Shown here in pieces: positions 267 through 35,022 of a DNA stretch of 35,022 bases (position 1 is the first letter of the stretch; the number at the start of each line of letters is the position of its first letter). The position numbers and the translations under genes are program-made. The DNA comes from Pseudovirgaria hyperparasitica (Eukaryota): assembly GCA_010093815.1 (NCBI GenBank), contig ML996608.1. One strand, given 5' to 3'. Under the pieces are notes generated by a model. It made no database searches, was not told where the DNA came from, and saw only the letters and a program-made list of their open reading frames with translations.

Positions 267-321
267 CTGCCCTTTTCACAACGTTCATATCTGAAAACGA
301 GCCTGGGTACGTTTAGTAAAT

Positions 322-12247: not shown

Positions 12248-12252
12248 CTAGG

Positions 12253-12390: not shown

Positions 12391-12908
12391 GCTACCCCTA
12401 ATTAACTTAAAACGATAAATTAACTCGAAATAATAATATCTTTTATAATAATACTAAAGTCCGTTACTCTAGTAGGCTTACTTTAATTAGGTGCTTGTGT
12501 AGATACTATGCGATATTACTTTCTAAGTATCGGTAGAAGTATTAATAGTATTATTATAATATAGCTCTACGTTTCTCCGGTTCTTACACGAGGATAGCTT
12601 CTATTACCTTTAGATTTATAGTAACTATCTAAAGTCTATTGTGAACCTCGAGGAAAGCTTCGAATTAGTTATCGGGGTATTTAAATATATGATTTAGTAC
12701 TATTCTTATTACTCTTATTTCTTTTATATTTATTTAATCCATTTATAGTATCGGTATAGCTATAGAGATCTAAGACTATTCGTATATATCGTCGTCTTTT
12801 CTTAGCTAATTTAAGTAAGTAGATTTAGTAGGAGTAGAAACTATAGGTATTAGAGTAATAATAGTTTCTATATTTATAGCCGCGGCGGCGCTTACGACGA
12901 CGGTAGTA

Positions 12909-12980
12909 GCTATAGTACTTATAATAACGTTAATCTCTATGTCGGCTATAGTACTTATAATAATATTAATATCTACGTCG
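12909..12980. repeat. 36-bp tandem duplication inside ORF3
   Basis: gctatagtacttataataa recurs at 12909 and 12945. Confidence 0.85.
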
Positions 12981-13837
12981 GTTACGGCATTAGTTTCTAC
13001 TAGTAGTATGGTTTTAGTAGCGGCTTCTTCTATTTAGGAGTCTTCTATATCATAGAATTCGTTTACTAACTCCGAGTTATTAGTATTCACGAGCTTCGCG
13101 AATTACTACCTTTATTTCTTAAACTTATTTAAGACTACTTCTTTATATATAACTTCTATTAGGTCGTTATTTATATTAGTATCTAATTCTCTAACTTCGA
13201 GTAGCTTAATATCTAGGCTCGATCCCTTATTATCTAAGAGCTTCTAGGCGTTTCGTTCTAGAAGTTCCTTAAACTAATACTCTAGCGTAGGAATTCTAGA
13301 AACTAGTATCTCTATCTAAATATTATTAAGTTTAGAATAGTAATTATAAGTACTAGCGGCCGCTACTTCATTAAAGAGCGTTTCGAAGGGTATTCCGTTT
13401 CTATTAGAAGCTTTATATAGTTTATCTTCTTTTATAGCGAGTAGATACTTAAAGCTATCTTAGATATATTACTAGTACCTTCTAATGATTTCTTTAATAT
13501 CTTATACGCCTACTTCTATAGCACGCTCTATGGTTTTCGTCACGCTATTAGGATATTATAGGTTTATAATTATCTCTATGAATCTTCGTATCTAGCCGGT
13601 GATTCTTAGTATTTATCTAATTAATTCTTTCCTAGATAAAGCATCTACCGTAGGCGTAGTAGTTACTATAGGCGTAGCTATTACTACGGGCGTAGCTATT
13701 TCTACTATCGTAGCTATCTTCTACGTAGCGATCTTTTATACTTCTACTATAAACCTTTTTAGAGTCTCCCTTATAATATCTTTTATCTAAGCTTCTATCT
13801 CTTTCTTATGGGCTAAGATAAGCGTGTTTATTTCCGC

Positions 13838-13939
13838 CTCTTATTAACTAATAGCGTTTACGGTTAACGCGGCGGGAATTAAGATAGACTCTTATTAACT
13901 AATAGCGTTTACGGTTAACGCGGTGGGAATTAAGGTAGG
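13838..13939. repeat. 51-bp tandem duplication inside ORF3
   Basis: ctcttattaactaatagcgtttacggttaacgcgg recurs at 13838 and 13889. Confidence 0.9.
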
Positions 13940-16900
13940 TAAGGTCGCGGGAATTAAGGTAGATCGTAGCTCCGTTAGCTCTATTAGAGTAGACGGAAGT
14001 TCTAACGACGTAGAAGCTACCTTAGATACTATTATTTTAGCGGTAATTAACTTTATCTTCTTTACTATTTTAGCTTTCTTTGCGGCGGTAGCTAGTATAG
14101 GTTTTATAATAGAGAGTAGAACCTTAATTACCTCTATTACCTTCGTAACTAGAGCCTATATTTCTTCTAGTATCCTTAATTTAATAACGCCTTCGGTTAG
14201 GTTTATTAGAACGTTTAAGGTAGATACTCCGGCCTTTAGTCCCTTAGCGATCTCTCTTACCGAAATAATTAGCTATACCTTATTAGTATTCGTGAATCCT
14301 TTAATTACGAAAAAGTTATCTATTTTATTAAAACTAGGTAGCGAGCTTATAGTAATAGTTTATATAGAGATAGTTTACGTAGAGGTTTCGGGTAGGGTTA
14401 AAGTATATCTACTAAGTAGGTGTCGTGGTAGGAGTTTATTAATTTTCCTACCCTATATAATTCGATCTTCGCGGGAACCGTCTTAAATAATTATCGGTAT
14501 AGTTATCTAGTCGTTCGTAATACCGTAATTTAAAGGATCTATAAACTATAGTATTTTTTTATAGGCCGTGGCGAATTTCCGTGTAAGGTCTTTAAGAGAG
14601 ACTACCGAGATTAGCTATATATATACTATATCTTCTATATATAGCGCGTGGACTTCTTTAAGTAGCTTTTCTTCTACTCCTTAATACTAGTCTACTATTA
14701 CGCTCTCTATTAGGCCCTATTTTCGAACCAAGTCTTAGAGTATAACCTTATTTAATGGTATCTATAAGTGTACTTCACGGACGTTTTTTATAATTCTAGC
14801 CTTATCTTCTAGGGAACTTAGACGGTAGATTAACTAGAACTAGTATCCGGACGATTATAGTACTATTATATAGTTACCGTTAAGTCCTTTAAGGCGTTAT
14901 ATAATATACTAGAATCTTACGTATCTATAGAGGATGTATTATTAGTATTTATATACCACGAGCGTCGCTTCTTAATTATATTATAATTACTATATGATTA
15001 AGTCTAGAGGTCCTATTACCTATTCCTAGGCGATGTCTCTTTACTACTAAGCTATAACAGTAACCTAAACTAATCCGTCCCTCCTTTACTATACGGCGTA
15101 GCGCCGAATATTCTTGCTATTTAAATCTTATAGCTAAGATACTAGTATATTCCACGCGTAACCATAGTAGCTCCGGATTTCCTCTATAGTATCCGTTATA
15201 AAGTATCGTGCCGGAATCTACGTATATTCTACTTAAGCTATTTCCTTTATAGAGTATCTATTACCTAGTTTTAAGAGCTACGCGATAATACTACTCTTAG
15301 ACGATTACTCTACCTTAAATCTCGTGCCTTTTAGAAGTGTAACGGTAAAGTTCCATTCCTTATCCGCGGATATTATACTCTCCTTAAGTTCTTCGTTAGA
15401 AACCGTGGCTAGAATCTTTATAAAGAATTCTTTTTACTTTAGAATATACCTAATTTCGTCTATAGGTACTAGAGTAAGTAAACCTAGGTAAAGACGGTAT
15501 AGATTTACTCCTAGGTCCGAAAATTCTAACTAATATTACCATATAACGACTGGTTCCTCCTCTTCTATTATAGGCGGCTTATATTTATAGTTAGAGTTAG
15601 AGATTATACTACCATCGAGAATGTTATAACGCATGGTACCGTGCCTTATACTATACTTATTATACGCCTTTTATTCGCCCTTTCTTATAATCTTAAGCTT
15701 ATTTTTCGTCTCGATTATAATATAATATAGTATAGTAATATTTAGTAGTATGGTTAGACCTTTTAGATCCTACGTAACTCCCTTATCTTTCTTATATAGA
15801 AGGTTAATCTATTAAAGCTTATGTAATACTATTTATAATACCTCTATATTCGAATAATAAACCCCGTACTTTAGAAGAGAAGGGTCCTACTAGGTAGGAT
15901 TCTTAATATTAGTATCGGTAAGAATCGGTCGCTTCTTATAGAGCACGTACTAACTAATAGTAAGATAGTAGAACTTTCTATTAACCGTAACCGGCTTTCC
16001 TTTATTATCGTAGTATAAGTATCTATCTTTATAGGGAGGGTCTAGCTTTCGCGGTAGAATATAGAAATTATCGCCTTCCTTCGTTATAAAAGGTAATACT
16101 TCCTTTAAAGACTAAGTCTTTGATACTTAAAATAATACTATAAATCTATTTATAATATTCTTCTAGTAAAAGATATTATTAAGTTTCCTATAGAATATTA
16201 ATGCTACGTAAATCTCGAGTTTATACTTATTAGAAAGGTAGATACCGTAAGTTAGTATCGCAAATCGGAGGCCCTTAACTATAATTCCTAAGGTAGAATA
16301 ATCATAGACTGGTTTTCGTTCGTTATATCTTCTATTAAAGCTTCCTTTTTATTCTATATTGATTCTAATACGCGCTTTATAGAATAGGAAGGTTTCTAAT
16401 TATATAGTTCTAATAATACTACTTATTATTCCTTTTACGCGAGGGTACTTTCTATATACCGCTCGAGTTATAATAGGAACTATATTATATTTTAAGGCGG
16501 TAGACTTCTTAATTAGTAACTTCTTACTCTTTATAGCCTTTTCTTCGTTAATTTCGCTCGCTAAATAACCTCTATTACCTTTATTTCCTTTCGGCTTTCG
16601 CTTACGACCTCTCTTAGTAACTGTTTTTAGTAGAGTTAAGGCGTTTTCCTTATCTAAGGTAACTTTAGCTTTATTATCTTTACTCCGTATTATCTTTATA
16701 TACTATAGATATAAGAGTAAGAAGGAATTAATAACTATTTAAGATTATAGATAAAACTTATTAAGCTAGAGTCTCTATAAGGTTAAGGTAGAGGATAGAA
16801 AGATAAGTTACGCGTTAAGTTAAGGATAAGTAAGTAGAAGGTAAATCGAGCTCGGTGGTAAGAGTGTTCGCGAGCGTAACGTTACTATTACTACCTTCCT

Positions 16901-17619
16901 TTAACGGTAGAGTGAATTCTCCTTTTACTAAGATTATATCTACTAGTACTAGATTTACGTCGTTAAGAGGACTAATAGCGGTAAGTATAGTAATAATATT
17001 ATTAACTACTAAATAGTATCGTGTTCGTTATCATTATTATATATAGTAATATATTTCTACTAACGGATACTAAACGGTAGTCTATAGCGTGTACTTAATA
17101 GCCGATTAAGATATATATAGTAAGGAGGGCATTCTCGGATCCTAGTATTAATCTATATAGATATAGTACTATGAGATTACTCCTTTATCGTCCTTACGGA
17201 ATTCGTATTATAATATATTAAGAATTCGTTTAAGCTCGTAGGTATATAGTAATAATTAATATTACTATATTTTTATTTACGGATTCTATTTCTCTTAGAC
17301 CGTTATACTATTTTACTTACTATTACTACGAATATTTAGGGGACATGATTATAGGAATAGTTATATACATAGGCGTAGTTTCGGTGAAGTATGTTTTTTA
17401 GATTAGAGATATATCTAATATTAGATATAATACTTTAATACTATTACACGTTTAACATTAGATATAATTCTTTTATTAATATAATTCTTTTATTATACGG
17501 TAGTACTTCTAAAGGGTAAACGCGAAAAGGAACGTATATATACAATTAATAATAATTCGGAATTATATCTATCTTAGGTAGGAACCTTTCGGTTTCTAAC
17601 CTAAGCTAGGATTTTAACG

Positions 17620-20600
17620 CTATATAAGAAACGCCTCTTAGTACTTAAGGCTATGAATTCCTTTTATCTAGGTCCTCTTTTACGGTTTCTTATCTCCGTT
17701 TTTAAGGTTAGATATATTATATTAAATTCCTCTCGAAGTTCGCGGGTATCTCTAAGGTCTTCTTTATTATACCATTAGTTATAAATTAGACCCTAGCCCT
17801 TCCATTTAACTAGGTACTATTTCTTCTTTATATTCTAATTCTAGCGTCGGTCGAGAAACCTTTTAATTTCATAAGACGGATATTCGTCTAGATCGTCTTC
17901 GGCGAAAACGCTAGGTAGTTTATTAGTACTATAGTTATATCTAAATAGATCCGTACCGGGCGGGTATAGTACTAGCTAGCTAACTAATACTACTAGGTGA
18001 ATTTTTACGCTCTCCGGAAGGTCGAGTTCGTATATATTATTTCTAATACGTTATAAAATTTTAAACGGACCGGTTCTCTAAATATCGAACTTCCTATTTA
18101 CGTGCCCGTGTACGCGGTAACTATAGTATAATTATAGATATACTTCGGCTCCGGGTTTTAGACGAAGAGGCTTATACTTCTTATTATATCGGTACTTTAT
18201 TATTACCGCTACGAAGCTAGTAGCTTCGGCGGCTATTTCTCTATTCTTTAAACGGAGCGATTTATAATCTTTAGGAGGTAATTTATGTAGTATATCCGCG
18301 CTATCTTTAACTTTAAAACCATATAATTACTTATTTAGAGACATGCTAGTAGTTTCATTTATAGCGTTATTTATAAAGCCTTATAGGAATAGTAAGTAGG
18401 TATCCTAATCTTCGTTAGGATTCTCGGTAACCACGAAACGAATTCTAATCTCTATAGATTAGTTTATTCTCTCTATCTAGCCGTCTATTTATAGGCGATA
18501 TACGGCGGACATTAGAAATTTAACTTCTAGCATGCTAAAGACCTTTTACTAGAAGGCTAAAAGCTATCTTATATCCCTATCTAAAATAATTTCAGCCGGA
18601 ATTCCCTAATCGTGTTTAACGAGGTTTAGTAGAATTAGACTAGCCTATTCTTTAGCGCCCTAGTTAGTGCGTCCTAGAACGAGAAGTACTCTTTTTATAG
18701 CTTTATAGGTAATAGGCGCTAGAGCGTCGTAACCCGTTACTATTTCAGGTAGAGCGGTAATAAGGTCGAGGTATATGGTTCTAAATGGTACGTGCTAAGT
18801 CGCGATAGGCGTGAAACTCCCGTATAGCTATTACCGAGAGGTCCTCACCTCGTTACATTACTTATAATATTTAATATAGGCCTTGACTTCTTTCGAAAGA
18901 TGGCGTACGTAGAAAGATACGGACACTCTCTTATAGAGTCTATTCTCTCCTTAATAGAAACTATAATTATAAAGTACGTTAAAGATCTCGCTAAGAAGGG
19001 CATAGGGAATATATAGCCTTTCCCGATTATTACCTCTATCGATGTTATAGATTATCTTATCTTTTATAAAGAATTTTAGTCTATTTAGAGGTTATGATTT
19101 CCCTTTTAGTAGTAATTTACCTTTAGAGAAGTTAACGTATATTAGTACGTTCTCGTCTCTATGTTAGAGAGTATCTTCCTTAATTAGTACTTCGCGTACT
19201 TTATTCCATGCCTCGTCGTCTTTATAGACTTTTTATAGGCGATTCTTAAATTTATCTACTATTTTAATCAAGACTACGTGATAGACGTAGGTGAGTTTAG
19301 TAATCGTCCCTTTATCGCTACCGATCGTAAAAGCCTATGCGATCTTATCTAGTATATTACCTTCTACGGCTAGCGCCGTACTTATAAGCCTACTAAGAGC
19401 ATCTAGTATAATATAGTTTCTACTAGGGCGGTATCGGATATCGAGCTTATATTATAAGAGATATTAAGCTACTCGGATAAGACGGATATTCTTATAGTCG
19501 GCGGCTATGCTAGAGAGCTTCGTCTAATATATAATAGCTATTATTATAGTATAGTCCGTGAATATAATAAACTATACTAATAATTTAACGAAGTGTTAAA
19601 GTTTAGTTACTAACTAAACTAGACTAGCTATTTCAAGTTCTATGGGCTAATAGTTTCGTTTAGTTACTATAATAGCTTTACTAAGAAATAATATTAGTTA
19701 TATTACTTCCCTTAGAAATAATTCTACCTGGCGTAGCCACGATATTCTTAGGGGGTTAAGTAGATTAAGATTAGTCTTATTAGGATTAACTAGATCGTTA
19801 ACCGGAACTAACGATATTACTAGATCTAGGTCCCCGCGAACGTGGTATATAAAGACTCTAAAGCTATACTCTTTTAAAGCGTTAACGTCTAGAAACGTAC
19901 GGCTTACCGGCTTATAGTAATAATAGAAGATCGGGTCATCCTATAGTCCTTATATGGCTTAAAATGATTTAATAAGTGCTTTAGTCTATGGAACTAGCCT
20001 TTTTAAGGCCTATACTTTTTGCTAAGTCTTTTTACGAGGGGCATAGCGGAAGAGCTTAGTACTAGCTTTTAGTAGCGGTAAGACTAACTATATATAGTAT
20101 AGTAACTATCCTTATAGATATCCTGCGATTCCTAGGTATTATTTAAGTACTATAGTATCTTTTAGGAACTATATTTCTTTTAGAGCTATAATTCTTTCTA
20201 CCTTTAAAGATAGTCCGAAGGCGTTAACTCTTTTTCTAAGAATTATAGTACTTAGATACCCGACGAACGTCTTGGTTACGGCGAGAGACATATTAAAGTT
20301 TAATAGTATACTCTATAGTTACCGTAAATAATAAATATACTCTTCGAATATCTTAGAGAAAACTACTATATCGTCTATATAGGCTTTTACCTATAGGAAT
20401 CCTCGTAGAAGATTATTAAGTTCCCGTTACACGTACTAGACTAAATTAACGTAGCCCATAGTAAGAACTTTTAGGTATTCTTAATCTCTATAGATGTTTA
20501 CCGTGAATTACTTACGATCTTCTTCTCGTACTAACTATTAGTAGAATATACTTATGGCGTCTATTATTATAATATAGTGGTAATCTCGGCTAGCCTAGAG

Positions 20601-23600
20601 TATATTATCTATTCTTATTAACGGGTAGGAATCTTTAACGGTAATTACATTAAGGCCTCTAATATTAATTACTACGCGTGGTTTCCATATCAGCCTATTT
20701 ATCTTTAGATCATAGACCTCTCTCTAGATAACAAAAACTAGGGAGCTAAATTAGGTAGGCTTTTTACTCTAACCTATTTTATCGTTATTATAAAGCCCGT
20801 TAAAGGTTTTATTAATTACTTTACGGTCCTAAGGGCCGACGTTATATACTCGAGTATATAACTTCTTAAGTTCTCGCTAGTCCTCTATAAGGATAAGCTT
20901 TACTTCCCTAGAGTTTACAATAGATTTTTTATCTTACTATAACTCTATAAACTCTTTAATAAGTTCTTTATATTTTATAGCCTTCTCTTCCCTACTATAG
21001 AGTATTATTCCGTTTAGGAGACGTGTCTCGAGCTTAGAGTTAATATTCGCGGCTTCTAAGGGAGGAAGGGTAGCGAGATCTACGTTAGTATTGGAGATTT
21101 AGTAGTATCCTATAATATCTAGTTCGCGGATTTTACTAAGCACCGTATTCCTTAGAATTACGAGTGTCTTATTTCCGTTATTCTTAATTACGATTCCTCT
21201 ACTACTAGAGTCGATAACTACTATATAAATTATAGCTTATCGCTTTCTAGTAGCGGAGAGGTACTCTTTCGTAGGTTCGAAAAGTATATCGCGATTATTT
21301 AGGAGGTTACATGTATCTATAAGAACTACACCTCTTAAATTAGGCTTAATAGATACTAAGTACTACGCTCTTACTATAACATTTAACTACTTCTTATATC
21401 TTAGGCGGACACTTATAGGAGCTACTATATTTTAGCTGTATAGAAAGGTAATCGTACGGTTTTAAACTTTAATATCTATTTCTTCTAGACTAATAGTATC
21501 TATATCTATTAGTAGTTTTAGTACTAGGTTTTTAATAATACGTGCTTCGTATTTAATAGTAACTATAATATCGTTTCCTTCTACGGTAGTAGATACTATA
21601 AGTATTATTTTAATAGACTCGTTACTATTATAAACCTTATTACCGATACCTATAACTACTATTAGGTGTATAAGTTTTATAACATGCTTTTTATAATCTA
21701 GTAGGACTATAGCTAGCTAGTTTCTATCCACGAGACTTAGCTTTACTCTAGTATCTACGATTATTTACTTAGGCTCTATGGTCCCGTTTAATATTACGTT
21801 TATTATAATATAGTTCTAATAACGAAAGCGATAGTCTTTCGTTCCTATCCTTTTTATAGTACTCTTAATAACTTATAGTACTAGTAGAGGCGATAGAAAC
21901 TCGTCTACCATATATACGTGATCTACTGGTTTCTTCGGATACTTTTCTATAATATACTAATATAGCTTATTATTAGAAGGATACTTTTATCTATAGACGC
22001 GATAGTTCCTCGCTATAGTCCTTTTACTCTTCTACGGTTTCTTAAGCGATAGTGCTAGTAGAGTCTTAACTTCCTTAGTTCTTATGAAGAAAACTCTAGC
22101 TAACTTCTTATAAGGTTCCTTGTCCGACTAGCTTTCTTTAGCTTACTCTTAAGCTTATCCGCCCTAATCTTTATCCGGTAAGTCTTCTTTATTTTACGAT
22201 CCTTCTTAATTAAGAAACTCTACTAGGACTATATTATAATAGGCGCGTTACGGCTTTATATAAGGTTGCCTCTCGACTTATATAGAAGTCGTTATAGTCT
22301 TTTCGAAACTCTTTAGCTAATACTTACCATTCCCTTTATATAGGCGACGGTCTACTTTATATAGGCGACGGTCTCTACCTTAATACTAGTTTTAACTACG
22401 GTCTTTACTAGACCTTTACTCGTTTATCTAAGAAGATATAACTTAGATTATTTTCTCGCTTTCTTTTATTATCTAAAACTTATTAGGGCGGTCCTCTCGT
22501 CCGCCGCTACTACTATATTATATCCCGCGGTTCCCTTAAAAGTAGTCGTTTCCGACTTCTTTTTCTTTATAAGAATAGCGGTTTAACGGATACTAGCCTT
22601 ATAACGCTTTACTAGAATAGGAATAGTCGAACTTACTCTACTTATAGAGTTTACGCTAGGTCTATAACTTTTACTCGAGCTATTTATAAAAGGTATCTAG
22701 ATTAGTATTAGATCCGGGTTCCTCTATACTTACCCTAAATCTTAGGTCGAGCTTATTCTAGGTCTATACTATAATAAGTACTTTAGATTTTAAATTTGCT
22801 TCTTTATAAGCCCTAAGTACTTTTATAACATAGTTAGTTATACTCTAGCCTCTATATAAGTTCTCGGGGCTATATAATATGCCTTAGAGTCTCTTTAAGG
22901 CGGCACTTAGAGGTATAGAGAATCTCTTTTCGAGTTTCTTAACCTAGCGCTTAAGTCTATCTCCGCTAGTAAGACTTAACTTTATAGCGTCGCTTAATTA
23001 AGAGCTATACCAAATTTACGCCGTGCCTCTAAGATACTTATAGAGATTATAACGAATGATTTTCGCAGGGTATATCTACTAATAGTTCCTTATTATGTTA
23101 ATAAACGGCTGAACGGATCTATAATAGACCTTTCTATTCTTATTATAAACATCTTCTATTCTTAAAGGATCTATACTCGGATCGAAGAATCTAATATCCT
23201 CCGTCCTAAACTTCGTGTCTCTTAGATTTAAGCTATCGTTATCTTTATAGTCTCTAGTTTCCGTAGTTCGCCGGCGATAATACGGGAGTATATATAATCT
23301 ACGACGGTAACCACAAGCTCTATTATTATCTCCCTATAGATTATCGTCTAAACCTTCGCTTAGATCGTTATTATTCCTTAAAACTCTTACTATAGACTAA
23401 GCTTACCTATAGTAGTCGTTTCTAGACGGACGGTCTCTAGAAAGTTCTTCTTTATCTCTTCCCTAAGGCCTTTTCTAAGAGGGCGCGACTTAGCTAGCTC
23501 TACTTTATTCTACTAGAGGATTTACCCTCTTACGATTATTAAGTACCGCTAAAACTATTATTATAATTTACGCGATTATTTCTACGCTTAGCATATTAGG

Positions 23601-23855
23601 CTAGGCTTACTAAGCTATAATAGGAACTGGAATTAGAGCCGGAATTAGAGGCTCGAGACTTTAAGGCGTTCCGACTTACTCTCTACTTCTCTCTACGCCT
23701 TAGCTCGAGCTTCCTCTTTAATAAGGATTCTCTAGTACTATAATCGCCTTATAAGGATTAGAGATTATCGTCTCGCGAGAATTAGAGTTCTCTAGTCTTA
23801 CGGGTTCGTCGTGAAACTCGAAGTCTTATAGTCTTACGGGCCTTTTCTTTAGTAT
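17620..23855 (-). pseudogene. Element A fused gag-pol polyprotein (~2080 codons): gag, C2H2 finger, protease, RT, RNase H, integrase, chromodomain
   Basis: Landmarks checked (gag core, C2H2, protease, RT, integrase, chromodomain) share one frame (2 mod 3). De-RIPed readings: EDIGFFDP..LRGTAQIWY gag core (~23200-23000), VDTG protease (~21755), AY(I/V)DDIVVFS RT (20381-20370), RNase H DAS and NYWPTELE (~19880-19630), integrase HPQTDGQTER (~18490), chromodomain YLVKWKG (~17805). Ends approximate. Confidence 0.9.
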
Positions 23856-24549
23856 AGTAGGAACTTTAATTAATAATAGAGGGGACGAGGAAGGTAAATT
23901 TACTTCTCTTAGCTATACGAAGTTTCTAAAGTTACTAAAATATTTAGATTAACGGAAATTTACTACTAGCCTTTTAACCTTTATAGCTTTAGTAGTCGCT
24001 AGACGTATTCTATAATCTTTATTTATAAGATAGTTCTAGTTAGGAGAATATCTATCTTTCTAAGGCTATTTACCCCTAGACTATAAACGATTTCGATTTC
24101 TTAAGACTTCTAGATATACGTAGGTAATACCTCGAAGTAAGATAAGGGTATAGAGGTTTAATTCATGTAGTAGACTATCTTTAAAGTAATAAATAAGTTA
24201 ATAAGCTATTTTAATAACTTACTCTAATAGCTTAGAAATTAGTTCCTTCTATAATACTAGTAAGGGAGCTAGTATATCTTATATATTCCCGAGTATACTA
24301 AGAATATCAGCCGTAGGAGGCGCGGACGTAAGCTTCTCTAGTATACTTAGGTAATTAGAAATGTTTAGTAGGAACCTACTCTAACCTTAGTAGCTTACGG
24401 AAACCGAGGCTTCGTATACTAATTATCTCGTCTAATTAGTACTAACCTATTCCTATAAAGTAGGGTTTAACTAGTACTAAGTATAACCGGTTATAGTATA
24501 GTATCGTATTCCTTACTTAATAGGAACTAGAGAATCGTAGAGAGCTCGA

Positions 24550-24787
24550 TGTAAAGAGTGAAGACGTGGGATAGTAGTCTAATAGTTCATAGAGAGACAT
24601 AGGAATATATTTATAGAGTAATCTTACTCTTATACGAGGTTGATTCCTAACGAGTAGAAATCGGTTTATACGGTCTACTTATATAGTAACCTCGCTTAAC
24701 TCAGCTAACTTAACCTAGCTCTAGCCACTACGTGGCTACATGGATTAGAATAGTCTATATAGGTCTATTATAGTTCCCGTCCTAATA
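24550..24787 (-). repeat. Element B 3' LTR (238 bp)
   Basis: Matches 32357-32594 without indels (13 transitions by my count). Confidence 0.95.
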
Positions 24788-25268
24788 ATATCCTTCTTCT
24801 TTTTATGCTTCGCCCCGAAGCACTTAAGTATATATAATCCTAAGTCTCTATAATCTATCGTGTACCTATATATCCGTAACTAAGTTCCTATAACGTTATA
24901 ACCATCCTTAATATAGGTGAACTCGAGATTCTAGTTTACTTTTATTAGTTTATGCACGCGCTTATCCCTTGCTTCGTGGCTACTACCTAGGATATATAAT
25001 TACTACTTTAGTCGAGTATATATTTAGCTTCGCTCACCTTTAATTTTATTCTCTAGTATATCCACCTCGCTCTTAAGGTAAGTCGTTAATTTATATACTA
25101 TCTTCTCTAGTTTAGGTTTAGAAGGGTCTATAGTAGTCTATTCTTATTAGAACCGGTCCTATATAACCTATTCGCGTTATTACGGTTACTAATTTAGCTT
25201 CATTAATCGCCGTTAAGGGTAGACGAATATTCCTTTCTTAGATCTCTAGCTAATATATATATATATAG

Positions 25269-26581
25269 ATATCTAATACTAGTCCTATCTCTAAGCCTGC
25301 CTCCTCCTCTCGTAAGACTTACTCTAAAGGTATCGTCTCCTCCCCGGCCACGCCGGCTAAGAAGCCTACCTATCGCGGTAGTATAAAGGCGCGCTCTAAG
25401 TCGGAGAAGAGAGTAGCTAGGGCTGCTACTACTACTACCTCTACTACTAATATAGCCACTAGTTACTCTAATCTAGGTAATCCTAGTACTAAACTTATGG
25501 ATAAAGTGGTTATAGGTTCTCCTCTCACTCTAAAGCGCACGCCGCCTACTCTACCTCCTCTAGAGGATAAAGAAGATCTCGTTATAGATAATAATCGCGA
25601 GCCCTCGCGCTTACCCACGCCGCCGCCTCGCCGCTCTTCCTTCCGGTCTAATATAGACTAATTTAGTTACTCTAGGTCCTTTTAGGACCTTAATATTCGC
25701 TCTAAACCCTAGCCTACTAATAATAAGACCTAGGTCGCTAAGGATACTAAACGTAGTTACGGTTTACGCCATAGAAAAACAGCGAACTACGGTTTAATAT
25801 ACTATAAGTATATTAAGGGCTATACGGCCGGCTCTAAATATCTCTTTCACTCTAACTCTAGTATTAGCTACTACTCTACTAACCGCGACGGGCCTATACG
25901 CCCTATCTTTACTCTACCTACCCGCTACCGCCGCTATACCGTGACTAGTAAGACTTATCTATAGGTAAGTATAATAGGCTATCTTAATCTAGTATGATCT
26001 AAAGTAGTCCGCGCTAATATATTCTTAGATTTCTATATATATATAAGATATATATAACGATCTTCGCGTCCGTGAGACCCTCGGGGGTCCTTATAGCCGC
26101 CTACCTACTATATAGAGGGAGTTTAGGGAGCGCTATAAGCTCTTTCTAGAGGTTATTAAAGTATAAGTTACGAGCACGTTAATTATTTTTAACACCTATT
26201 AATTTTTCTAGCCGCCGCGAGATCCCTAGCGCCTAGGCTATCTATTCTAGGGAGTCTATCCTAGCTATAGAGGCCGTAGAGAGGATTTACTCTATCCCCC
26301 CCCGTCCGTCTCGCGCTACTAACGGATCTTATAAGAGGTCTACTATTTCTCCCTCTAAGTCGCCTCGTAAGAGGGTATATATTCCCTTCTAGATTATTCT
26401 AGATCGTATTAGCTAACTTTAGACCTAGTCGCTACGCTCCGGTACTTAAGGCTCTTCCCTCTAGGCTCTAACGGATTAGGTTATTACTCTAGAGGCTAAG
26501 GTCGTCGTCCTCCGCCGCCATATCGTACGGTTAGAGAGAACTATACTAGAGATTAGGACGGATAATAAGATAGAGGAGTAG
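25269..26581 (+). pseudogene. Element B antisense accessory gene, 3 exons (25269-25964, 26029-26162, 26212-26581), ~400 codons; basic/disordered N-terminus, putative Cys-rich motif, C-terminal coiled coil
   Basis: First ~125 codons are stop-free despite RIP. Intron 25965-26028 is GTAAGT..GCTAAT..TAG. Intron 26163-26211 has a RIPed donor (T|ATAAGT) and supplies exactly the needed phase change. Exons total 1200 nt. Confidence 0.7.
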
Positions 26582-27039
26582 CTCTATGGTTCTAGCTCTA
26601 TATATTGGCTCTATGCCTAGCTCTATATATTCTAGATCTACTATAGGTGGTACGCGCCGGCTCTATTTACCTAGCTTTTATCCGTTTTAGTCCTTTTTAG
26701 ACCGTTTAGATACCCGTCGGCTAGTTTCTAGTAATTTAATTCTTAACTTAACGATATTATATATACGCTCGCTTAGCTTATAACTATCGGTTTCTATATT
26801 CTGATTTTCCTTAAGTTACCTAAGTGTAGGTACCATATATAAATTAGTTTATCTCTAGAAATTCTATTAGAGTACCTAAACTAGTAGCCTAGTAGTTATT
26901 AGTTCGGGTACTCTAACCTTTTATATTTCGTGTTAAGAGTTTAATTCTATAGTAGGGTACCTTTTTTTAGGTTCTTAGTCCTATGTTTTTCTCATATATA
27001 ATAGTCCATATTAGTCCATTCTAGACTCTTCTATATTAT

Positions 27040-30000
27040 TCTATTATAGTATGTCGCGTTACGTTCCTAAAATAGTTATTTACGCTTTCTTCGCGTCTAG
27101 TAACCGTGCGACGCTTGAATTATAGGACTACTATATAGAGTTTTCCTAGTGCGCGTCTAGATTTCCTAGTTTGGTACTTCGTTCTCTACGGTATCCTTCT
27201 TCTTTTTATAACGACCGCGACGTCGCTATACTTATATTAATAATATACTATTCTACATCTTTTGCTTATACGCAGCCATTATAGAACTTAAGATATATAC
27301 CGCTAGTTCCTAGGTGTCCTTATTCTTAGTATAGTCCTTCTAACGGATTCTATATTTCTAAACACCGTCTTTATCGATCCTATATTCGATAATATAGTCT
27401 ACTTTAAACACGTCTAGTCTATCTTAGGGTATAATAGAGTATAACTACACGTTCGTGCGGCCATATACGTTAGGTTAAAATCTTTTAAGTAGTAAGACGT
27501 AGAACACGTTATAGATTCTTATATCGCTTCCTAAGTCGAGCTTATAGACTCTTATACCGATATAACGTTTAATTCGGAAGGGACTAGCCATTTTATAATT
27601 AAGCTTCTTATTTACTCGCGACGTTCGTATATTATAGACGTTAAGAAGGACCTTATCGTCCTCCTCGTACGTCTAATCCTTAGCTAATCTATTATAGTAC
27701 TTCGTATACGAGTCGTTTACTTATTAGATTATAGCGTAATAGTTACGTACGGTTTTAAAGATTTTAATCGCTAATTCCTAAGCGTGGACGTTCACGTCTA
27801 TTATTCGATTAAATTAGACCGTCTAAGGCTTAAAACCTATCCTTAGACTACGTCCGAGGTTCGCCTAGAAAGGTATAATACCTATCATACTATAACGACT
27901 ATTATTATATACGAACTCTACTATACTTAGTAGGGAGGCCTAGTCGTTCTACTTAAAATTATAGAATACGCGTAGGTAGGCCTCGAGCGTCTAGTTCTAT
28001 CGCTCTATCTAGCTATCCGTCTAAGGATAAAATGCTATAGACATGTTTCTATTTATACTTACCATTTTATAGAATAACGTCTAGAATTTAGACGTAAAGG
28101 TACTTTCTCGGTCCGTAACGATCCTTTTTAGTATACTATGGACCTTAATAATCTCGTTCTAGAACACCTACGCTAGTTCTTTAGATATAATCATCTTCTA
28201 TACTAGGATATATCTAGACATCTTTATAAGTCTATCCACGATAATAAGAATAGAATTATAACTTATCCTAAGCATCTCGCTTAGAGATAAGTTAACTATA
28301 AAGTCTATAGTAACGTCTTCCTATATAAAGAGGGGGGCTGAAAGAGGCTATAAATTTCTATATAGCTTATGCCTAGGGGCCTTTATTCTTTAATAAATTA
28401 GATAAGTAGCTATCTATTCTTCGACGTACTTAGGTATATCTTTCTAAAAATAGTACTAACGAATTAAGCTTAGGGTACGTATATACCTAAAGTGTCCTAC
28501 TAGGTTAGCGTTATAGTATCGGCTAACTACGTTAAATCGCGCGTTATCTATTAGTATATAGTACTTTCTATCGTAGTAAAGCAAGCCGTCCACGAAGGTC
28601 TACTTATAGTCTACTTTAGTCCGTAATAACCCATCTTACTATATTTTATATAACTTTAAAACTATCGGGTCTATCTTCTATAGATCTATAATTAACTAGG
28701 CGAGGTTAATTAGATATTTACGCCGGGTATTATCGCCCTTCCTAATAGCGCTAATAAACGGCCTACTAGGGACTTCGGTACCGCGTCTTTAGTTACCGGC
28801 TTTAGTCTTAGAGATTTGATTACCGGTATCGACGTTAGTATCTCGCTAATCATCTAATAACTTAAAATCTAACCTCGTCCTTAAGAGTTAGGCCTATAGC
28901 TACTCTAGAACTCTATGGCTACTATAATTCTAGGCGCCTTCTTTATAGTTAGGTCTTCTTAACATTCTATTAGCTAGGTTTATACTTCTAGGTTAATAGT
29001 AGATTATAAAGTGAAAGTTCGTAAGCTACTTAGTCTATTAGATCTATTAATGGTTTAAAACCGTTATACTTATAAACCCCTTTAAGTTATAGTAATTAGT
29101 TAGTAACTCGACGTTATACATGGCACCTTTAAGATAATATCGCCACTATTTAAACGACTCTACTATTACTAGTAGCTCTTAGTTATAGATAGTATATCTA
29201 GTCTTAATATCGACTATTTTACGTAAGAAGAACGTAACTAGATACCATTAGACCTTTTTAGACTTAGTTAGTCTAGGCTAGGAGAGAATACCTAAGATTA
29301 TAAATTCTAACGCATCGGTTTTAACGTAGATAGGTTTAGTCGGGTCGAAGTACACTAGTAATAGGGCAGTTATAAATGCCTCTTTGATTTTCTTAAAGGA
29401 GGCCCTTTCGCCTTCCGATAATTCTATAGGCTACGATTTAATATTATACTATTTCTATCTACCGCGGACCGTAATAGATGAATCTATAGTAGTAGTACGC
29501 GTGTTAAGCGGTGCTACTAGCCGGGAGAAATACTTAATGAATTTTTAGTAGTAATTAGTAAATCTAATAAAGACACGTATATCTCGAACCGATCTTAGTT
29601 TAGGCTAGTCCACGATAGTAGCGACCCTGTCCCTTTCTATGGTTATACCTTGATTAGTAATAACGAAGCTAAGGAAGTTAATATGGTCCTGGTGGAACTC
29701 GTATTTAGATAGCTTAATATATAGCTTATATTTTTCTAGCCTATCTAGGACTACACGTACGTGCTAGATGTGTTCTTCTTCGTTATTAGAGAAGATAAGG
29801 ATATTATTAAGGTATATAATGCACGTCGTGTTAAGTAGGCCTACTAGCGCGTTATTAATATATACTTAGAAGGTTCCTAGCGCGTTAGTTAGTCTAAAAG
29901 GGACTACTATATACTTAAAGTATCTATAACGGGTCCTAAACGCCGTTTTCTACTCATCGCCCTTCTTAATATATAGGCGGTAGTAGGTATCGCGTAGATC

Positions 30001-30935
30001 GAGCTTAGTAAAGATCTTCACGCGCTCTAGTCTATTAATAGACTTAGAGATAAGAGGTAGTAGGTAACGATTCTTTCGCGTAATATTATTTAGACTATAG
30101 TAGTCGATACATAGACGGAGACTTCTATCCTTCTTCTTTATAAAGAGGATTAGAGCTCTAGCTAGGGATATACTAGGCCTAATCTATCCTTATATAAGGT
30201 TCTTTTCGATGTATTCTCGGAGGACCTATAGCTCGGGTTCTAATAGAGGGTAGATAGGTCCGTATAGGGGTTATTAACCGTCTTTAAGGTTAATAGTAAG
30301 GTCGGTAGATTAGTATTAAGGTAATTTAGACGAGTCAATCGCTAACGCGATATATTAGTATATTTTATACTAATATAGTAGGTTTTCGTCTACTTTAATA
30401 CTAAGCTCTCTATTTTAAGTAAGTAAGAGGACGTAGATAGCGGAGATTACCTTTTCGTAGTCCTTCTAGAATTATTCGTTGTCGACTAGCTATACTAGGT
30501 TCTATTATAGTAGGTATATACGCTAGCCAGCTGTTTTCTAGATGAAGTCTAGTTTCGGGTTATATTTTTTAAGCTATAGTATACCGAGGATCATGTCGAA
30601 GGGACTATCTACTATAATAAAGGTTAAGTAGTAGGGTTTCCACTTCCCCCCGCTATTCTAGATGCTATATTTAATAGTATAGATACTCTACGATTTAATA
30701 GGACCGTCGATACTATAGAAGGTAGCACCTATTAGTACTTAAATATTAACGTTAAGTTCTCGTGCTTATTAAGTCGATATAACGTTAGTAGCTAAACCGC
30801 TATCGAGTATTATAGTCTAATGTTATCTATAAGGGACCTCGATAGGCCTAGCCTATAGTTTAATATACTAGTTAGCTGGTTATCCCTCTATTTTAGTTAC
30901 GTCTATAAGTCACGAGGGTTCCTCGTAGGTAGTTA
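27040..30935 (-). pseudogene. Element B pol: protease, RT, RNase H, integrase, chromodomain
   Basis: De-RIPed readings: LDSG protease (~30804), YLDDILIFS RT (~29814; now YLNNILIFS), ETDAS..ELLAIV RNase H (~29320-29160), STAFHPQTDGQTERQNQ integrase (~28030), KKLDHKMAGPF (~27590), chromodomain YRIRWKDY..DTWE (~27330). Confidence 0.92.
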
Positions 30936-30942
30936 GTTTTTT
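30912..30942 (-). promoter_or_regulatory. -1 programmed ribosomal frameshift signal (gag->pol) of element B
   Basis: Slippery A AAA AAC (30942-30936) in the gag frame directly before the stop codon. A 9-nt spacer is followed by stem-loop ACGAGG-AAC-CCTCGT (30926-30912). Pol motifs lie in the -1 frame. Confidence 0.75.
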
Positions 30943-32315
30943 ATATCGTGTACCGGGTAGTTAGGCGCGATATATCCTAGCTACTAGCACTTATAGTATA
31001 TAACTAACTTAGTATCTATATTAGTATTCGGTGGTTTCCCTAAGCGGCACTCGGGTACTATATGGTCTATCCTACTATAGATATAGTAGGTGACTTTAGG
31101 TCGTTTATATAAGTCGTTTCTCGCGTCTTAATATATTAACTAGTGGAAAGATCCACGGTACGGGCCTCGTCTTCTCGAGTTCGTAGAGTGGTAGCGCCTA
31201 CGAGGTATTCCGCGCGATCTATTACTAAACTAGTCCTCTTTAGATAATTTTATATCGGATTAGATTAATAGAGATAGTCGTGCGTCTATACGACGTTAGT
31301 TATTTATTATACGCTAATATCGTTCTACGAGATTCGCGAGTACCTAAAGATTAGTAGAGATAGACGTTATAAGGTCGATGCGTTCCTTTATACTTGGGTT
31401 AAGGGACCTTTTAAAGTCGTCGTATTATTAAACTATATAATCTTCCTTAGCTTCTCTCTAAAGAGGTCGGAGATATTTAAGGAGTTATAACGGGGATTAT
31501 CTCTCTCACTATTAAGTCTTAAAGATATAGCTCTAAGTCTATTTATATCGCTCGGCTCTATCGCCGAAGTATTAAAGAAGGAATTTAGTAAACGTGTCCT
31601 AGTTATACGTATCCTTAGGGTGTTTAATTTAATATGCTATCTAACGTTTAGATGGCGTTAGGTCTAGGTAGTTCTATACGAACCTAATCTTATTACTATC
31701 GTTCGTAAATAGGTGGAAGAATCAGCTATACTAGTAAGCCTATTCGTGAAAGCTCCTTCTAGTTTTACCGTTAAAGTAAGGTAGTTTCTTAGGCTAAGGT
31801 AACTAGGATAGTAATAGACTTGGTTAGACTATTTCGGCTTAAGTTAATCCATATTAGTATAGATTAGTTACTACTAGCACTAAAGCGCGTAGTACGGCTT
31901 CGAGTCTAGCGGTTTATCCTTACGCTTTATCGAGTTTACGAAGTTACTACTCGAGCTAAGCCTAACGCTATCTCTCCGTATATAGCTTAGTATATACGTT
32001 ATCGTAAGGCGTGGTTAATGTTAGTTGGTTCTAACGAATTAATTCGTTAACGTTAATAGGGTCTAGTCTTATAGTAAGGATAGGTCTAGTATAGTATAAA
32101 CTAGACCGCGATAGAGTATGATGGACTCCTTCCTTATTATCTAGGTAATCTTCTATAGTTATATAGAATACCGTACTAGTTATTAGTGCGATAGCCTATA
32201 GGGTATACTTATTAGTAGAGGTGGTTATAGGGAGACTATTCTCTTCGTTTAGATTTAGAGAGAGTCTCTTATATAAGGTAGTACCACGGGTATTATGGCG
32301 CGTAGTAGGAGCCAT
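30933..32315 (-). pseudogene. Element B gag with two CCHC zinc knuckles
   Basis: Intact ATG at 32315 (MAPTTRHNTR). De-RIPed knuckles CYICGRMDHIAPEC (~31090-31045) and CYKCQQPGHIAPNC (~31010-30955). Confidence 0.85.
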
Positions 32316-32356
32316 CTCTATAAGCTACCGTCGTGCTATATAGAGAGAAATCAAAA

Positions 32357-32594
32357 TATAAAGAGTGAAGACGTGGGATAGTAGTCTAATAGTTTATAGA
32401 GAGATATAGGAATGTATTTATAGAGTAATCTTACTCTTATACGAGGTTGATTCCTAATGAGTAGGAATCGGTTTATACGGTCTACTTATATAGTAACCTC
32501 GCTTAACTTAGCTAACTTAACCTAGCTCTGGCCACTACGTGGCTACATGGATTAGAATGGTCTATATAGGTCCGTTATGGTTCCCGTCCTAACA
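32357..32594 (-). repeat. Element B 5' LTR (238 bp)
   Basis: Pair of 24550-24787; followed by TSD CTCGA. Confidence 0.95.
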
Positions 32595-33058
32595 CTCGAT
32601 CCTTTTAATGCACGACTTATTTAGAAACACTAGTACTTATACTACTTTTTCGTAATCCTCTAGAACGAGTCTCACGGAATTTAGTATAGTTAGAATAAGG
32701 TAAGGCCTTTAATATAGATACTTATTCCTGTTTTCCTCTAGTAGTAAATCCTTTATTTATCGTTCCCTTAGCTCCTTCCTTAGGACTTTTAGTTATAATT
32801 TTATACTCTTACGAGTCTTAATAATAGTAACGGTAATAAACGTTATCTAGTACCTAGTATTCTTTTATCCTTACTAATTATCTTACTATACTTATAAACT
32901 TCTTTTACTAAATTTTACGGAAGCGTCTTCCGTTTACTAAGTCGGGATATTAACGTCTTTTAATTCGGCTTCGGAGAACTAGTACGTTAGGGCGTTAGTA
33001 TCTTATATTTAACTAGTACTATCTTTCTTTCGAAAATAATTAGCTAGTAGTATACTTT

Positions 33059-33067
33059 TAGCTACTA
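33059..33067 (-). promoter_or_regulatory. Putative tRNA-iMet-type primer binding site of element A
   Basis: Minus strand reads TAGTAGCTA 3 nt inside the 5' LTR. This de-RIPs to TGGTAGCTG, resembling the Ty1/Ty3 PBS start TGGTAGC. Confidence 0.45.
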
Positions 33068-33070
33068 AGA

Positions 33071-33208
33071 TATTATGGATAGCGATGTTATGGCTTAGTT
33101 AAGTATTAAATTTATTACTAGCTACTTCATAGAACCTACGTCTATCTATATCGAACCTTTAGTCCGTAGTTCTTACCGTTATTCGTCTCCTTGTTACTTT
33201 CCGTGACA
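33071..33208 (-). repeat. Element A 5' LTR (138 bp)
   Basis: Pair of 12253-12390; followed by TSD CTAGG. Confidence 0.95.
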
Positions 33209-33213
33209 CTAGG

Positions 33214-34870
33214 TTCTTCTTTAGTTAACTTATTATATAGTTTCTTAAATTAAGCTATACTTTATCTTCTATACGGTATACTAGTACTAGAGTTTACTTT
33301 CTATTCACGGACTTCTCTTATTTTTAGATATTCTCTACTATATTTACTTAATATAGCTTAGTAATATTCTTTATCTTTTTTATAAAGGTTTCCGCTCTTT
33401 ATTTAGTAGAGAGCGAGAAACTAGAGTTAGCTTCTATCTATAGAGGTATAGAGGATAGTAGATTATATCTATAGGTAGTAAAGAAGGGGCTTATTTCTAG
33501 CTCTACTTAGTAGCGCGCGTTTAGTACTAGTTATATAGTTAGAAGCTAGGTTTTCTAATTAGACTATTTCTAATTAATAAAGTTTTATAAGTAGCTCTAT
33601 ACCTTCTAGTTTATTCTCTCTAGACCTCTATCTATTTAAGGATAGTATATAGAGCTTAGTCTATAGATTACTCTAGTAAGGCTATAAAAGGTCTTCTAGA
33701 AATAGCTAGTCTAGTTTATTCCTTAATCGCTCGTTATCGCTAAGGGTATACCGTAGTACCTTACCTAGTAATCTATAAATACCTTAGCGTATTCCTCCGC
33801 CTTTATAGTAGGTATTACTTATAATACTATAGTCTTACTTAGACGGTCTTTAATAATCTATAAGTAGCGGTTCCCTTCTAAGCCGGGTAGATTAGTAATA
33901 AAGTCTATTAAGATCTTCTAGAAGAAATAATTAGAGACTAGAAGAGACTTTAGAAGTCTATATTTTTATTTCTACTATACCTTATTCCGTCTATAGTAGT
34001 TATAATTTTATAGAAACTACCTTATATATCTTATCTATAGTAGCTAGTAGAAGCTTTAAGCTAGTATAGAAGTAGTAGAGTCTTAGCCTAGATAGCTATA
34101 GAGCGGTAAGTTATATATAGACTAGATAAGCTTAGTCTAAAGGACGTCCCCTTCTAAATCGCTAGGCCCTAGTACTTTATACTTAGCTTTTATAGTTATC
34201 TTCGCGCCTAGTACCTATAGTTTTCTATAGTAATTAAGGTAGCCCTCTAAGTTAATACTATAATCTACTACTTAGACTTTTAGCTTTACTTTACTTAGAA
34301 CTAACTATACTTCTTCTATTACGGCACGAAGTATAGTTTAGTATATTAAGTTCTTTTTTACTATTATAGTCTATAGATTGTTTAGAGAGGGGTCCTAGAA
34401 AGGCCCTAGAGAAGCCGGCTCTTTATAGGCGGGCTTAGTCCCTAGTAATATATCCTTAAATAGTAAGTTAGTAGTATAGATCGCCGCTAGCCTTACCTTA
34501 GAGACCGGCTAATCTTTAATATCTTTAGGGTCTAGAAACCTATAGAACCTAGACTCTTTATTATCTACTCTAAGTATATCTTATTTCTATCTTAATAGAG
34601 TATTAGGGATAACCGCTTTAGATCCCGGTTAGTAAACTAGGGAGAACTAATACCTAGATAAGGTTTTATACTACTATATTTAGCGTTCTAATAGATAACG
34701 CTTTATTATAAAGTATTTAAGGTTCTTATAGTCTATCTATATAGTAAAGGGACTATACGCTTTTAACTTAGAGTTCTAGAACTTTAAGTAGAAGATTATA
34801 GTAAGTATTTCCTTATTATAGATATCGTAGTTAATCTCTACTTTATTTAGCTTCTATAAGAAAAACCTAA
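33214..34870 (-). pseudogene. Element C pol, central part: RNase H and integrase of a third Ty3/Gypsy element (LTRs not identified in window)
   Basis: De-RIPed GFFSQKL..EINYDIHDKEMLAI, YRPG....PDALSRR, HHCC finger HDSPLCGHPGR..CDHC, GLLKPLPVP..ISMDFITDLP and AYHPQTDGGPERMNQ. Confidence 0.9.
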
Positions 34871-35022
34871 TAGATATAATAAATTACTAGCTAGAGCCAT
34901 AGAAAGATATATAGACTCTAGTACATGTAAACTTAACCTCTACTATATCTAATAAGTTTATATAAGGTATTTCCTTATTAGGAATAGCTTAATATTAGTA
35001 ATCGATATTACTAATATTATCT

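Follow-up and report, generated by a model that had tools for sequence, protein, structure and literature searches.

Additional open reading frames (ORFs) lying antisense between pol and the 3' long terminal repeat (LTR) have been described for the plant elements Grande, RIRE2 and Retand, and also for the fungal element Boty (PMC7264820). In Retand, 97% of the clusters encode TRP28 (PF04195), these ORFs having been proposed to bind DNA, and the same account also mentions antisense genes of HTLV (PMC11963269). Concerning fungi, the extra antisense gene between pol and the 3' LTR of Boty, an element of Botrytis and Sclerotinia, is known as brtn (2011, Virology 417:248, as cited in PMC8365987, PMC7264820, PMC4227169 and PMC5987419), its description being taken here from the citing papers. 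Apart from this one fungal family, such antisense accessory genes of LTR retrotransposons are known from plants, none of them having an assigned function. The present study deals with a 35,022-nucleotide stretch of contig ML996608.1 of Pseudovirgaria hyperparasitica (assembly GCA_010093815.1), further referred to as the window, which carries the minus-strand LTR retrotransposon designated element B, degraded by repeat-induced point mutation (RIP). The plus strand at 25269-26581, i.e. between pol and the 3' LTR of this element, probably represents the RIP-killed remnant of a spliced antisense chromovirus accessory gene, orthologous to an intact gene of a related metagenome element, L045. The original prediction, made from the letters of the window, had also seen an antisense, intron-containing and Cys-rich element gene here, and this is still the best reading, since L045 carries an intact spliced gene at the same place, its cysteines align with tyrosines of B, the intron phases agree and the similarity exceeds that of shuffled controls. 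As for precedents of antisense 3' ORFs, the plant Tat/Retand elements had been named, the fungal brtn of Boty having been overlooked (PMC8365987, PMC7264820).

The L045 element comes from a set of 79 metagenome loci with pol on the plus strand (610,691 nt; 18 pol homologues aligned). In the maximum-likelihood tree of the reverse transcriptase (RT)-RNase H region with 72 rows, element B is the sister of L045 (Shimodaira-Hasegawa-like approximate likelihood ratio test, SH-aLRT, 94), both being positioned inside a clade of ten (SH-aLRT 99). The L045 locus is 7,696 bp long, has a GC content of 0.50 and is not RIPped; its LTR pair has been checked by hand, a purine run standing in front of the 3' copy and DNA of no relation in front of the 5' copy, with about 2 kb between pol and the purine run. 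Its antisense gene consists of four exons (6844-6551, 6506-6343, 6295-6154 and 6102-5902; 801 nt), encoding 266 residues with no internal stop, and of three introns of 44, 47 and 51 nt with the donors GTAGGT, GTATGT and GTACGT, the branch sequences CTGAC or CTAAT and YAG ends. Exon 1 specifies six cysteines, C-x2-C-x14-C-x22-C-x2-C-x5-C, and ends two residues past the last one; the protein also possesses a basic patch and a C-terminal helical region. The sense strand of L045 over the antisense exons contains no ORF of at least 90 residues. Upstream of the ATG, a GTGAGT at 7143, a CTAAC at 6976 and a CAG at 6948 span 196 nt and are comparable to the signals of a possible 5'-untranslated region (5'-UTR) intron in B. 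It should be mentioned as a separate observation that each coding intron of L045 holds a TTGGCG(C/T)AAA-like motif, with two of them in intron 2 (6529-6520, 6328-6319, 6318-6309 and 6135-6127, minus strand), whereas the plus strand of the locus has no match to this pattern; it may serve as a binding site or have been left by duplication of an intron, either being putative.

The remnant in element B can be described by a four-exon model (25269-25964, 26029-26162, 26212-26374 and 26423-26581) of 384 codons with 13 stops, all on the plus strand. It is preceded by a possible 5'-UTR intron of 191 nt at 25078-25268, putative, the signals of which—GTAAGT at 25078-25083, GCTAAT at 25249-25254 and TAG at 25266-25268—were found by direct reading as originally claimed. 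The exon 1 remnant (25269-25964, 232 codons, 696 nt, five RIP-type stops) runs in frame +0 and ends with TAG|GTAAGT; its first 130 codons are rich in Ser, Thr, Pro and Lys and are followed by the motif of tyrosines, taken as former cysteines, at 25800-25961, comprising Y-x2-Y-x3-Y (25800-25823) and Y-R-R-Y-x6-Y (25926-25958). The start codon is uncertain, as the ATA at 25269 may be a former ATG and an intact in-frame ATG is found at 25497. Intron 1 (25965-26028, 64 nt, GTAAGT..GCTAAT..TAG, phase 0) follows two codons past the last of the tyrosines. The exon 2 remnant (26029-26162, 134 nt, two stops) is separated by intron 2 (26163-26211, 49 nt, ATAAGT..TAG, phase 2) from the exon 3 remnant (26212-26374, 163 nt), which ends in the basic patch SPSKSPRKR at 26348-26374; the ATAAGT at 26163, read directly, is possibly a RIPped GTAAGT, so that this donor is inferred. 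Intron 3 (26375-26422, 48 nt, GTATAT..GCTAAC..TAG with the branch sequence at 26412-26417, phase 0) is newly proposed, the GTATAT at 26375 being possibly a RIPped GTATGT. The exon 4 remnant (26423-26581, 159 nt) contains the heptad-like C-terminus at 26480-26551 and the terminal TAG at 26579-26581. The three-exon structure proposed earlier keeps its introns 1 and 2 and its sequence motifs, but had missed the third coding intron; the stops of its last exon cluster around 26375-26422, and the removal of intron 3 takes three of them away.

The three-exon frame had been presented as one of 400 codons, yet it is not open, having 16 in-frame stops (5 + 2 + 9), all of them TAA or TAG and none TGA, and neither Cys nor Gln nor Trp; only the part 25269-25658 (130 codons) is truly open. 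Such a pattern is the one expected of RIP acting on coding frames, and the B copy of the antisense gene is a RIP-killed pseudogene, not an open gene. An in-element control for reading Tyr as former Cys is provided by the integrase, since the C-x2-C-Q-R-x-K of the 18 aligned intact homologues has become Y-x2-Y-stop-R-x-K in B (28381-28407). The coding past of the stretch is seen in the TA dinucleotides, the great majority of which, over 25200-25950, share a single codon phase: the chi-square p values of the windows of 300 nt starting at 25200, 25350 and 25650 are 2.9e-6, 1.7e-6 and 7.1e-5, and p below 1e-4 is reached in just five of 166 windows over 9900-34950, three of them being in the antisense stretch. 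Frame +0 of 25269-25964 has five stops in 232 codons, compared with 87 in 1220 in the true pol frame. It should be pointed out that TA is self-complementary, so that the mirror frame of the minus strand profits equally and the periodicity shows former coding, not the strand; the plus strand was assigned because canonical plus-strand introns occur at the frame changes and the RIP-aware peaks described below lie on the plus strand. A codon-usage test of the strand, based on host genes RIPped in silico, was dropped, as its pol positive controls scored about 0 and it had no power.

The relationship between B and L045 was evaluated by a home-made RIP-aware Smith-Waterman comparison, in which each TA in B counts as a former CA or TG and the expected score is equal for every codon. 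When the six frames of 10001-35022 were scanned with the L045 protein, the five best peaks (72.0, 63.2, 59.7, 53.6 and 49.3) were all on the plus strand with ends between 25844 and 26486, the best value elsewhere being 46.8. The window-wide maxima of 51 shuffled L045 queries had a mean of 51.5 (standard deviation 3.9) and a highest value of 66.4. Against the spliced B model, L045 scores 60.6, a value reached by 0 of 300, 0 of 100 and 1 of 300 shuffles, whereas eleven other downstream-of-pol ORFs from other loci, treated by the same procedure, gave z-scores from -1.3 to 1.9. Residues 10-100 of L045 align to 25677-26067, where tyrosines of B line up with cysteines of L045, CVKCAKGY being paired with YYKYIKGY and SYQDL with SF(stop)DL. 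The intron phases are 0, 2 and 0 in L045 as well as in the four-exon model of B, and the length of exon 2 equals 2 modulo 3 in both (134 nt in B and 164 nt in L045).

With regard to the remaining members of the clade of ten, L031 also carries an intact spliced antisense gene, encoding 212 residues in the exons 877-692, 645-430, 379-212 and 162-94, with introns of 46, 50 and 49 nt. Its exon 1 contains six cysteines, C-x2-C-x11-C-x8-C-x2-C-x6-C, and in both L045 and L031 a phase-0 intron follows two residues after the sixth Cys, which may be compared with the Y-x2-Y-x6-Y-L-stop|GTAAGT of B. The terminal repeat of L031 contains exon 4, and is therefore a contig overlap, the gene lying directly 3' of pol. 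The L019 locus has an antisense ORF with a start rich in Ser and Pro, one stop and the cysteines C-x2-C-C-x19-C-x9-C-x2-C-x6-C, whereas no such antisense gene was seen in L034 and L063; the contigs of the other four members end within 282 nt of pol. An automatic survey of the gap between pol and LTR (16 loci, 60-2038 bp) proved unreliable for pairs at contig ends and was not used beyond the hand-checked L045.

Several observations weigh against the orthology of the B remnant and the L045 gene. In the tree, B sits on a long branch (1.25) and deviates in composition, which renders its placement less sure. Plain BLAST and tblastn see no similarity between L045 and B, this appearing only under the home-made RIP-aware score, and it rests on exon 1, the z-scores being -0.86 for exon 2 and 1.1-1.3 for exons 3-4. 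The best path of the unspliced scan, moreover, continues in frame +0 past the end of exon 1 to 26156, and the alignment alone thus does not prove the splice site. The choice of L045 out of some dozen ORFs was made by eye, and multiple testing applies; no significant likeness was seen between the proteins of L031 and L045 (z 0.1-0.3) or between L031 and B (z -0.1), meaning either that evolution of these genes is rapid or that they have no more than their plan in common. The minus-strand mirror of 25269-25964 is almost as open as frame +0, with nine stops in 232 codons.

The standard searches, too, yielded no credible homologue of the B gene among 1.84 billion representatives, in Pfam, or in metagenome and viral scans. 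With exon 1 of B, the word-index protein search gave nothing at E ≤ 0.01 among proteins of 127-406 residues, and the search of metagenome and viral contigs gave nothing; Pfam returned nothing at E ≤ 5 for the three exons as originally drawn. HMMER against the 1.84 billion representatives gave two matches, which are tandem-repeat proteins hit in many stretches and were judged spurious. Comparison of 24796-27240 with the rest of the window by tblastx reached a best E value of 0.024, nothing convincing, and neither blastn nor tblastx found the extra stretch of B in the 79 metagenome loci at E ≤ 1e-2. The Atlas gave no usable match for the stop-free 76-residue stretch of B, its recognition value being low (1399). 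As to L045, the word-index search with exon 1 retrieved L045 alone, and phmmer with the same exon against PDB found only an engineered RecA multimer.

These results would suit a real antisense coding remnant derived from a host gene fragment or other foreign DNA captured in this lineage alone, its likeness to L045 being due to chance and shared composition: no homologue was found by any standard search, exon 1 alone scores, L031 and L045 are not detectably alike, and the 130-codon N-terminal stretch of B rich in Ser, Thr and Pro lacks a counterpart in L045. Such a capture is nevertheless considered unlikely, the sister element having a gene at the same position and in the same orientation with equal intron phases, the real score being reached by none of the 51 window-wide and by 0-1 of 300 model shuffles, and just one of the 12 tested ORFs standing out. 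Somewhat less probable still is coding on the minus strand, i.e. a third sense ORF downstream of pol, Arg/Gly-rich and RNA-binding-like, in frames -2 (25210-25990) and -1 (26170-26470). Sense strands are often purine-rich, and the plus strand is pyrimidine-rich here (GC skew -0.206, AT skew -0.078), leaving the minus strand purine-rich; the mirror frame, with its nine stops in 232 codons, is also below the pol rate, and stop counts can mislead, as the frame poorest in stops at 12750-14400 resembles, by eye, the non-coding mirror. A minus-strand gene would, however, need a frame change within 25463-25472, where plus-strand frame 0 is open for 130 codons; the canonical introns at the frame changes are on the plus strand, the RIP-aware L045 scan peaks there as well, its best minus-strand peak in the region (45.5) being within noise, and the sense strand of L045 offers no ORF of at least 90 residues over the antisense exons.

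It is very improbable that there has been no gene at all, the low number of stops and the periodicity reflecting just the local composition of RIPped non-coding DNA with introns and motifs picked by eye. The intron pattern is indeed not enriched, the window having eight matches where shuffling gives 4.46 +/- 2.43 and ten of 100 shuffles reach eight; tyrosine is a frequent residue of RIPped frames in general (7.9% in pol), the codon-usage test was powerless and the Atlas recognition value for the 76-residue stretch is low. A stretch that never coded is, on the other hand, hardly reconciled with a periodicity of p 1.7e-6 and with three of the five windows below 1e-4 falling here, with a stop density under that of the true pol frame and with the specific similarity to L045. 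The remnant of a spliced antisense accessory gene shared with L045 thus remains the preferred reading.

Concerning its carrier, element B is a minus-strand Ty3/gypsy chromovirus, as given by its LTRs, a 5-bp duplication and the RT-RNase H-integrase order. It occupies 24550-32594 (8,045 bp), directly read from TG at 24550 to CA at 32594, and is flanked by the target-site duplication CTCGA at 24545-24549 and 32595-32599. The 238-bp 3' LTR (24550-24787, minus strand) starts on the plus strand with TG and ends with TA, read as RIPped CA, and the 5' LTR is at 32357-32594 (minus strand; self-BLAST and direct reading); in self-BLAST the pair 24549-24795 / 32356-32604, the only one reported for B, shows 93.6% identity. 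The polypurine tract (24791-24804, minus strand), seen as a pyrimidine run on the plus strand, adjoins the 3' LTR. The RIP-degraded pol (27259-30339, minus strand), delimited by Pfam and by tblastn with intact homologues, comprises RT, RNase H, integrase and SH3_Tf2-1, with one minus-strand frame matching RVT_1 (1.4e-19), RT_RNaseH_2 (2.2e-16), Integrase_H2C2 and SH3_Tf2-1 (8.3e-10); it still matches chromoviruses with E values up to 1.8e-171. Pfam did not report Chromo for B at E ≤ 0.01, but most of the nearest homologues carry PF00385, their C-terminal parts aligning down to 27259, which is the last aligned pol residue in tblastn. This leaves a gap of 2,471 bp (24788-27258) between pol and the polypurine tract/3' LTR, a stretch that is internal to the element given the position of the tract, and the antisense remnant lies in it, between pol and the 3' LTR of a minus-strand element, as originally located. 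Six-frame Pfam searches of 24501-33000 at E ≤ 0.01 gave nothing beyond the pol domains, and no TRP28 (PF04195).

The stretch between pol and LTR is repeated and covered by contigs, the family being highly repeated: contigs of two DNA runs from the same organism, with at least 80% likeness, cover all 30 bins of 24300-32800, among them every bin of 24584-32535. The aligned contigs number 28,091 and 10,015 for the two runs and are short, so that depth cannot rank the parts of the element. They differ from B almost solely by transitions, and among the 40 differences listed out of 596 one falls in the antisense stretch (25996 G>A).

The window up to ~9.5 kb is occupied by ordinary fungal genes with a GC content of 0.45-0.51, whereas from 10 kb onward it is AT-rich (GC 0.27-0.41) and bears the RIP signature, TA/AT being 1.73 and (CA+TG)/(AC+GT) 0.14 in 10000-24500 versus 0.76 and 1.19 in 1-9500. 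RIP is strong across the RIPped parts, these indices ranging over 1.73-2.53 and 0.09-0.35, respectively. Element B was inserted into another repeated and RIPped minus-strand gypsy element (24300-24549 and 32600-35022), with pol fragments at 33573-33956 and 34590-34871; two contigs of the same-organism DNA runs X1 and X2 join 24550/24546 to 32615, and the host repeat therefore occurs also without B. A second stretch of very strong triplet periodicity (p down to 5.5e-7) is found at 12600-14400, where frame +0 has 0-4 stops per 100 codons and the minus-strand mirror looks more protein-like by eye, neither frame having a Pfam match; it includes a 51-nt tandem duplication at 13838-13938. On the minus strand, 17676-19025 represents the integrase portion of another RIPped chromovirus, intact homologues being 24-28% identical to it. 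A direct repeat of 129 nt (12255-12383 / 33073-33201, 93.8% identity, 20.8 kb apart) may represent two copies of one further element family.

The claim that the tyrosine pattern resembles half of a Zn(II)2Cys6 cluster holds only as regards the half-motif itself, since B, L045 and L031 all lack the Zn2Cys6 spacing and match no Pfam Zn_clus. The pattern C-x2-C-x6-C-x5-12-C-x2-C-x6-8-C, with Tyr allowed for Cys, is absent from 24788-27258 and occurs just once in 10001-35022, at another place. Zn_clus (PF00172, cut-off 21 bits) was not found in the B exons at E ≤ 5, where the RIP change of Cys to Tyr would hide a match, nor in L045 exon 1 at E ≤ 10, nor in L031, L019 and two further L045 exons at E ≤ 1; no Pfam family matches the L045 or L031 exons tested. 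The AlphaFold model of L045 exon 1, obtained without an alignment, was unusable (predicted local distance difference test, pLDDT, 42.8). Zinc binding by proteins of the L045/L031 type is, even so, a reasonable inference from the six cysteines in a conserved pattern.

The exact Zn2Cys6 spacing was, by contrast, met in pol clades other than that of B. A six-frame search of the loci (610,691 nt) gave eight occurrences of the strict spacing, six of them being antisense within 2.5 kb 3' of pol, a zone making up 13% of the DNA. The antisense loci are L015, L022, L042, L053, L067 and L073, the exceptions being L048, on the sense side, and a second copy in L053. With pol on the plus strand, the ORFs are situated on the minus strand at L015:2839-3411, L022:5638-6159, L042:3650-4228, L067:5377-5982 and L073:5608-6129 and, for L053, at 6626-7174 and 173-736. 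They have no introns, measure 174-202 codons from stop to stop (166-193 residues from the first Met) and contain C-x2-C-x6-C-x8-11-C-x2-C-x6-7-C, the six cysteines being invariant among six aligned members; G-(G/N)-S-S forms the C-terminal end in five, and in the five lying 3' of a mapped pol this end overlaps that of pol. Pfam Zn_clus stays below threshold (14.6 and 11 bits versus the cut-off of 21). The AlphaFold model for this family (pLDDT 75) shows a single long helix, at 66-150, behind a small module at the N-terminus, and 12 of the 16 rows listed by Foldseek for it are DNA-binding domains of the zinc-cluster factors Pho7, Hap1, Put3, AlcR, Gal4 and Leu3, at E values of 0.75-8.2, no row having E ≤ 0.001. 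In the Atlas, the L067 ORF falls near three clusters of 'hypothetical proteins' from ascomycetes, with 122, 62 and 140 members. No relation of this family to L045 exon 1 is detectable by hhalign (E 0.1 over 9 columns), nor to B by the RIP-aware score (z -1.3 to 1.9).

It should be noted that the L048 ORF (8511-9173, plus strand) is 68% identical to the antisense zinc-cluster ORF of L042, is located on the same strand as the neighbouring pol and is the sole exception to the antisense rule; it may be an inverted fragment. A 310-residue ORF 3' of pol at L040:5171-6100 (minus strand) was rejected, being a Tc1/mariner-type transposase fragment (HTH_Tnp_Tc3_2, 1.7e-10) of a neighbouring transposon and not an accessory gene.

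Taken as the accessory gene of element B, the remnant would belong to the element itself, antisense to gag-pol between pol and the polypurine tract/3' LTR. Its spliceosomal introns would be kept in the transposition intermediate and copied with the element, the genomic RNA being of the opposite sense to the gene, a logic that is established. In the B copy RIP would have turned every Cys codon to Tyr and every Gln and Trp codon to a stop, and nothing functional would accordingly be made from it, whereas the intact relatives are predicted to produce a small protein (266 residues in L045 and 212 in L031) with six cysteines in exon 1, arranged as C-x2-C ... C ... C-x2-C-x5/6-C. Judged from these features, the product would be a zinc-binding, nucleic-acid-binding and probably dimeric nuclear protein acting on the transcription of the element or of the host.

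The retrovirus HTLV-1 encodes HBZ, a nuclear bZIP protein, in a spliced antisense gene. A broader proposal, put forward only tentatively and rather less likely to hold than to fail, is that whole clades of ascomycete chromoviruses encode small transcription-factor-like proteins antisense 3' of pol, in the form of either a spliced, non-canonical six-Cys type (B, L045, L031 and perhaps L019) or a minimal Gal4-like Zn2Cys6 module with a long coiled coil and no regulatory domain. As DNA-binding dimers, they might adjust transcription from the LTR or act as competitors of the zinc-cluster factors of the host, and would be a fungal counterpart of HBZ, with introns preserved only as antisense. If the proteins bind DNA, fungal retrotransposons would carry regulators of their own, which bears on copy number, escape from silencing and rewiring of host genes. 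In practical terms, gene finders and libraries of transposable elements should expect spliced antisense genes in the region between pol and LTR, and counting TA as former CA or TG recovered a homology missed by BLAST.

Of the known systems, Boty is a chromodomain-bearing Ty3/gypsy element of fungi which, like B, has an additional gene running against gag-pol in the region from pol to the 3' LTR; brtn is likened to the B gene by position and orientation as given in the citing descriptions, and the searches with exon 1 of B and of L045 returned no protein named BRTN. The plant Retand/Tat, Grande and RIRE2 elements share with B the long region from pol to the 3' LTR, the antisense orientation and a proposed DNA-binding or regulatory role, but are non-chromovirus lineages, and the TRP28 (PF04195) of Retand was not matched in B or in the exons of its relatives tested. 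HBZ resembles the B gene, by description only, as a spliced retroelement gene on the opposite strand at the 3' end, with a basic region and a dimerising helix, and differs in having a bZIP instead of a Cys module and in belonging to an animal retrovirus. The Zn2Cys6-spaced antisense ORFs agree with the genes of the B clade in lying directly 3' of pol and in an N-terminal six-Cys module followed by a helical or coiled-coil region; they differ by the exact spacing, the lack of introns and the pol clades. The full-text literature searched gave no paper tying a zinc cluster to an LTR-retrotransposon ORF, the one paper in which all the terms coincided dealing with host factors that act on Ty5. Against this background, what is new here is the link from a dead copy of a RIPped genome to relatives that are intact and spliced, an exon plan common to L045 and L031—a six-Cys exon 1 ending two residues past the sixth Cys, and three short introns—into which B fits with its third intron, and the antisense ORFs of other clades with exactly the Cys spacing of fungal zinc-cluster transcription factors.

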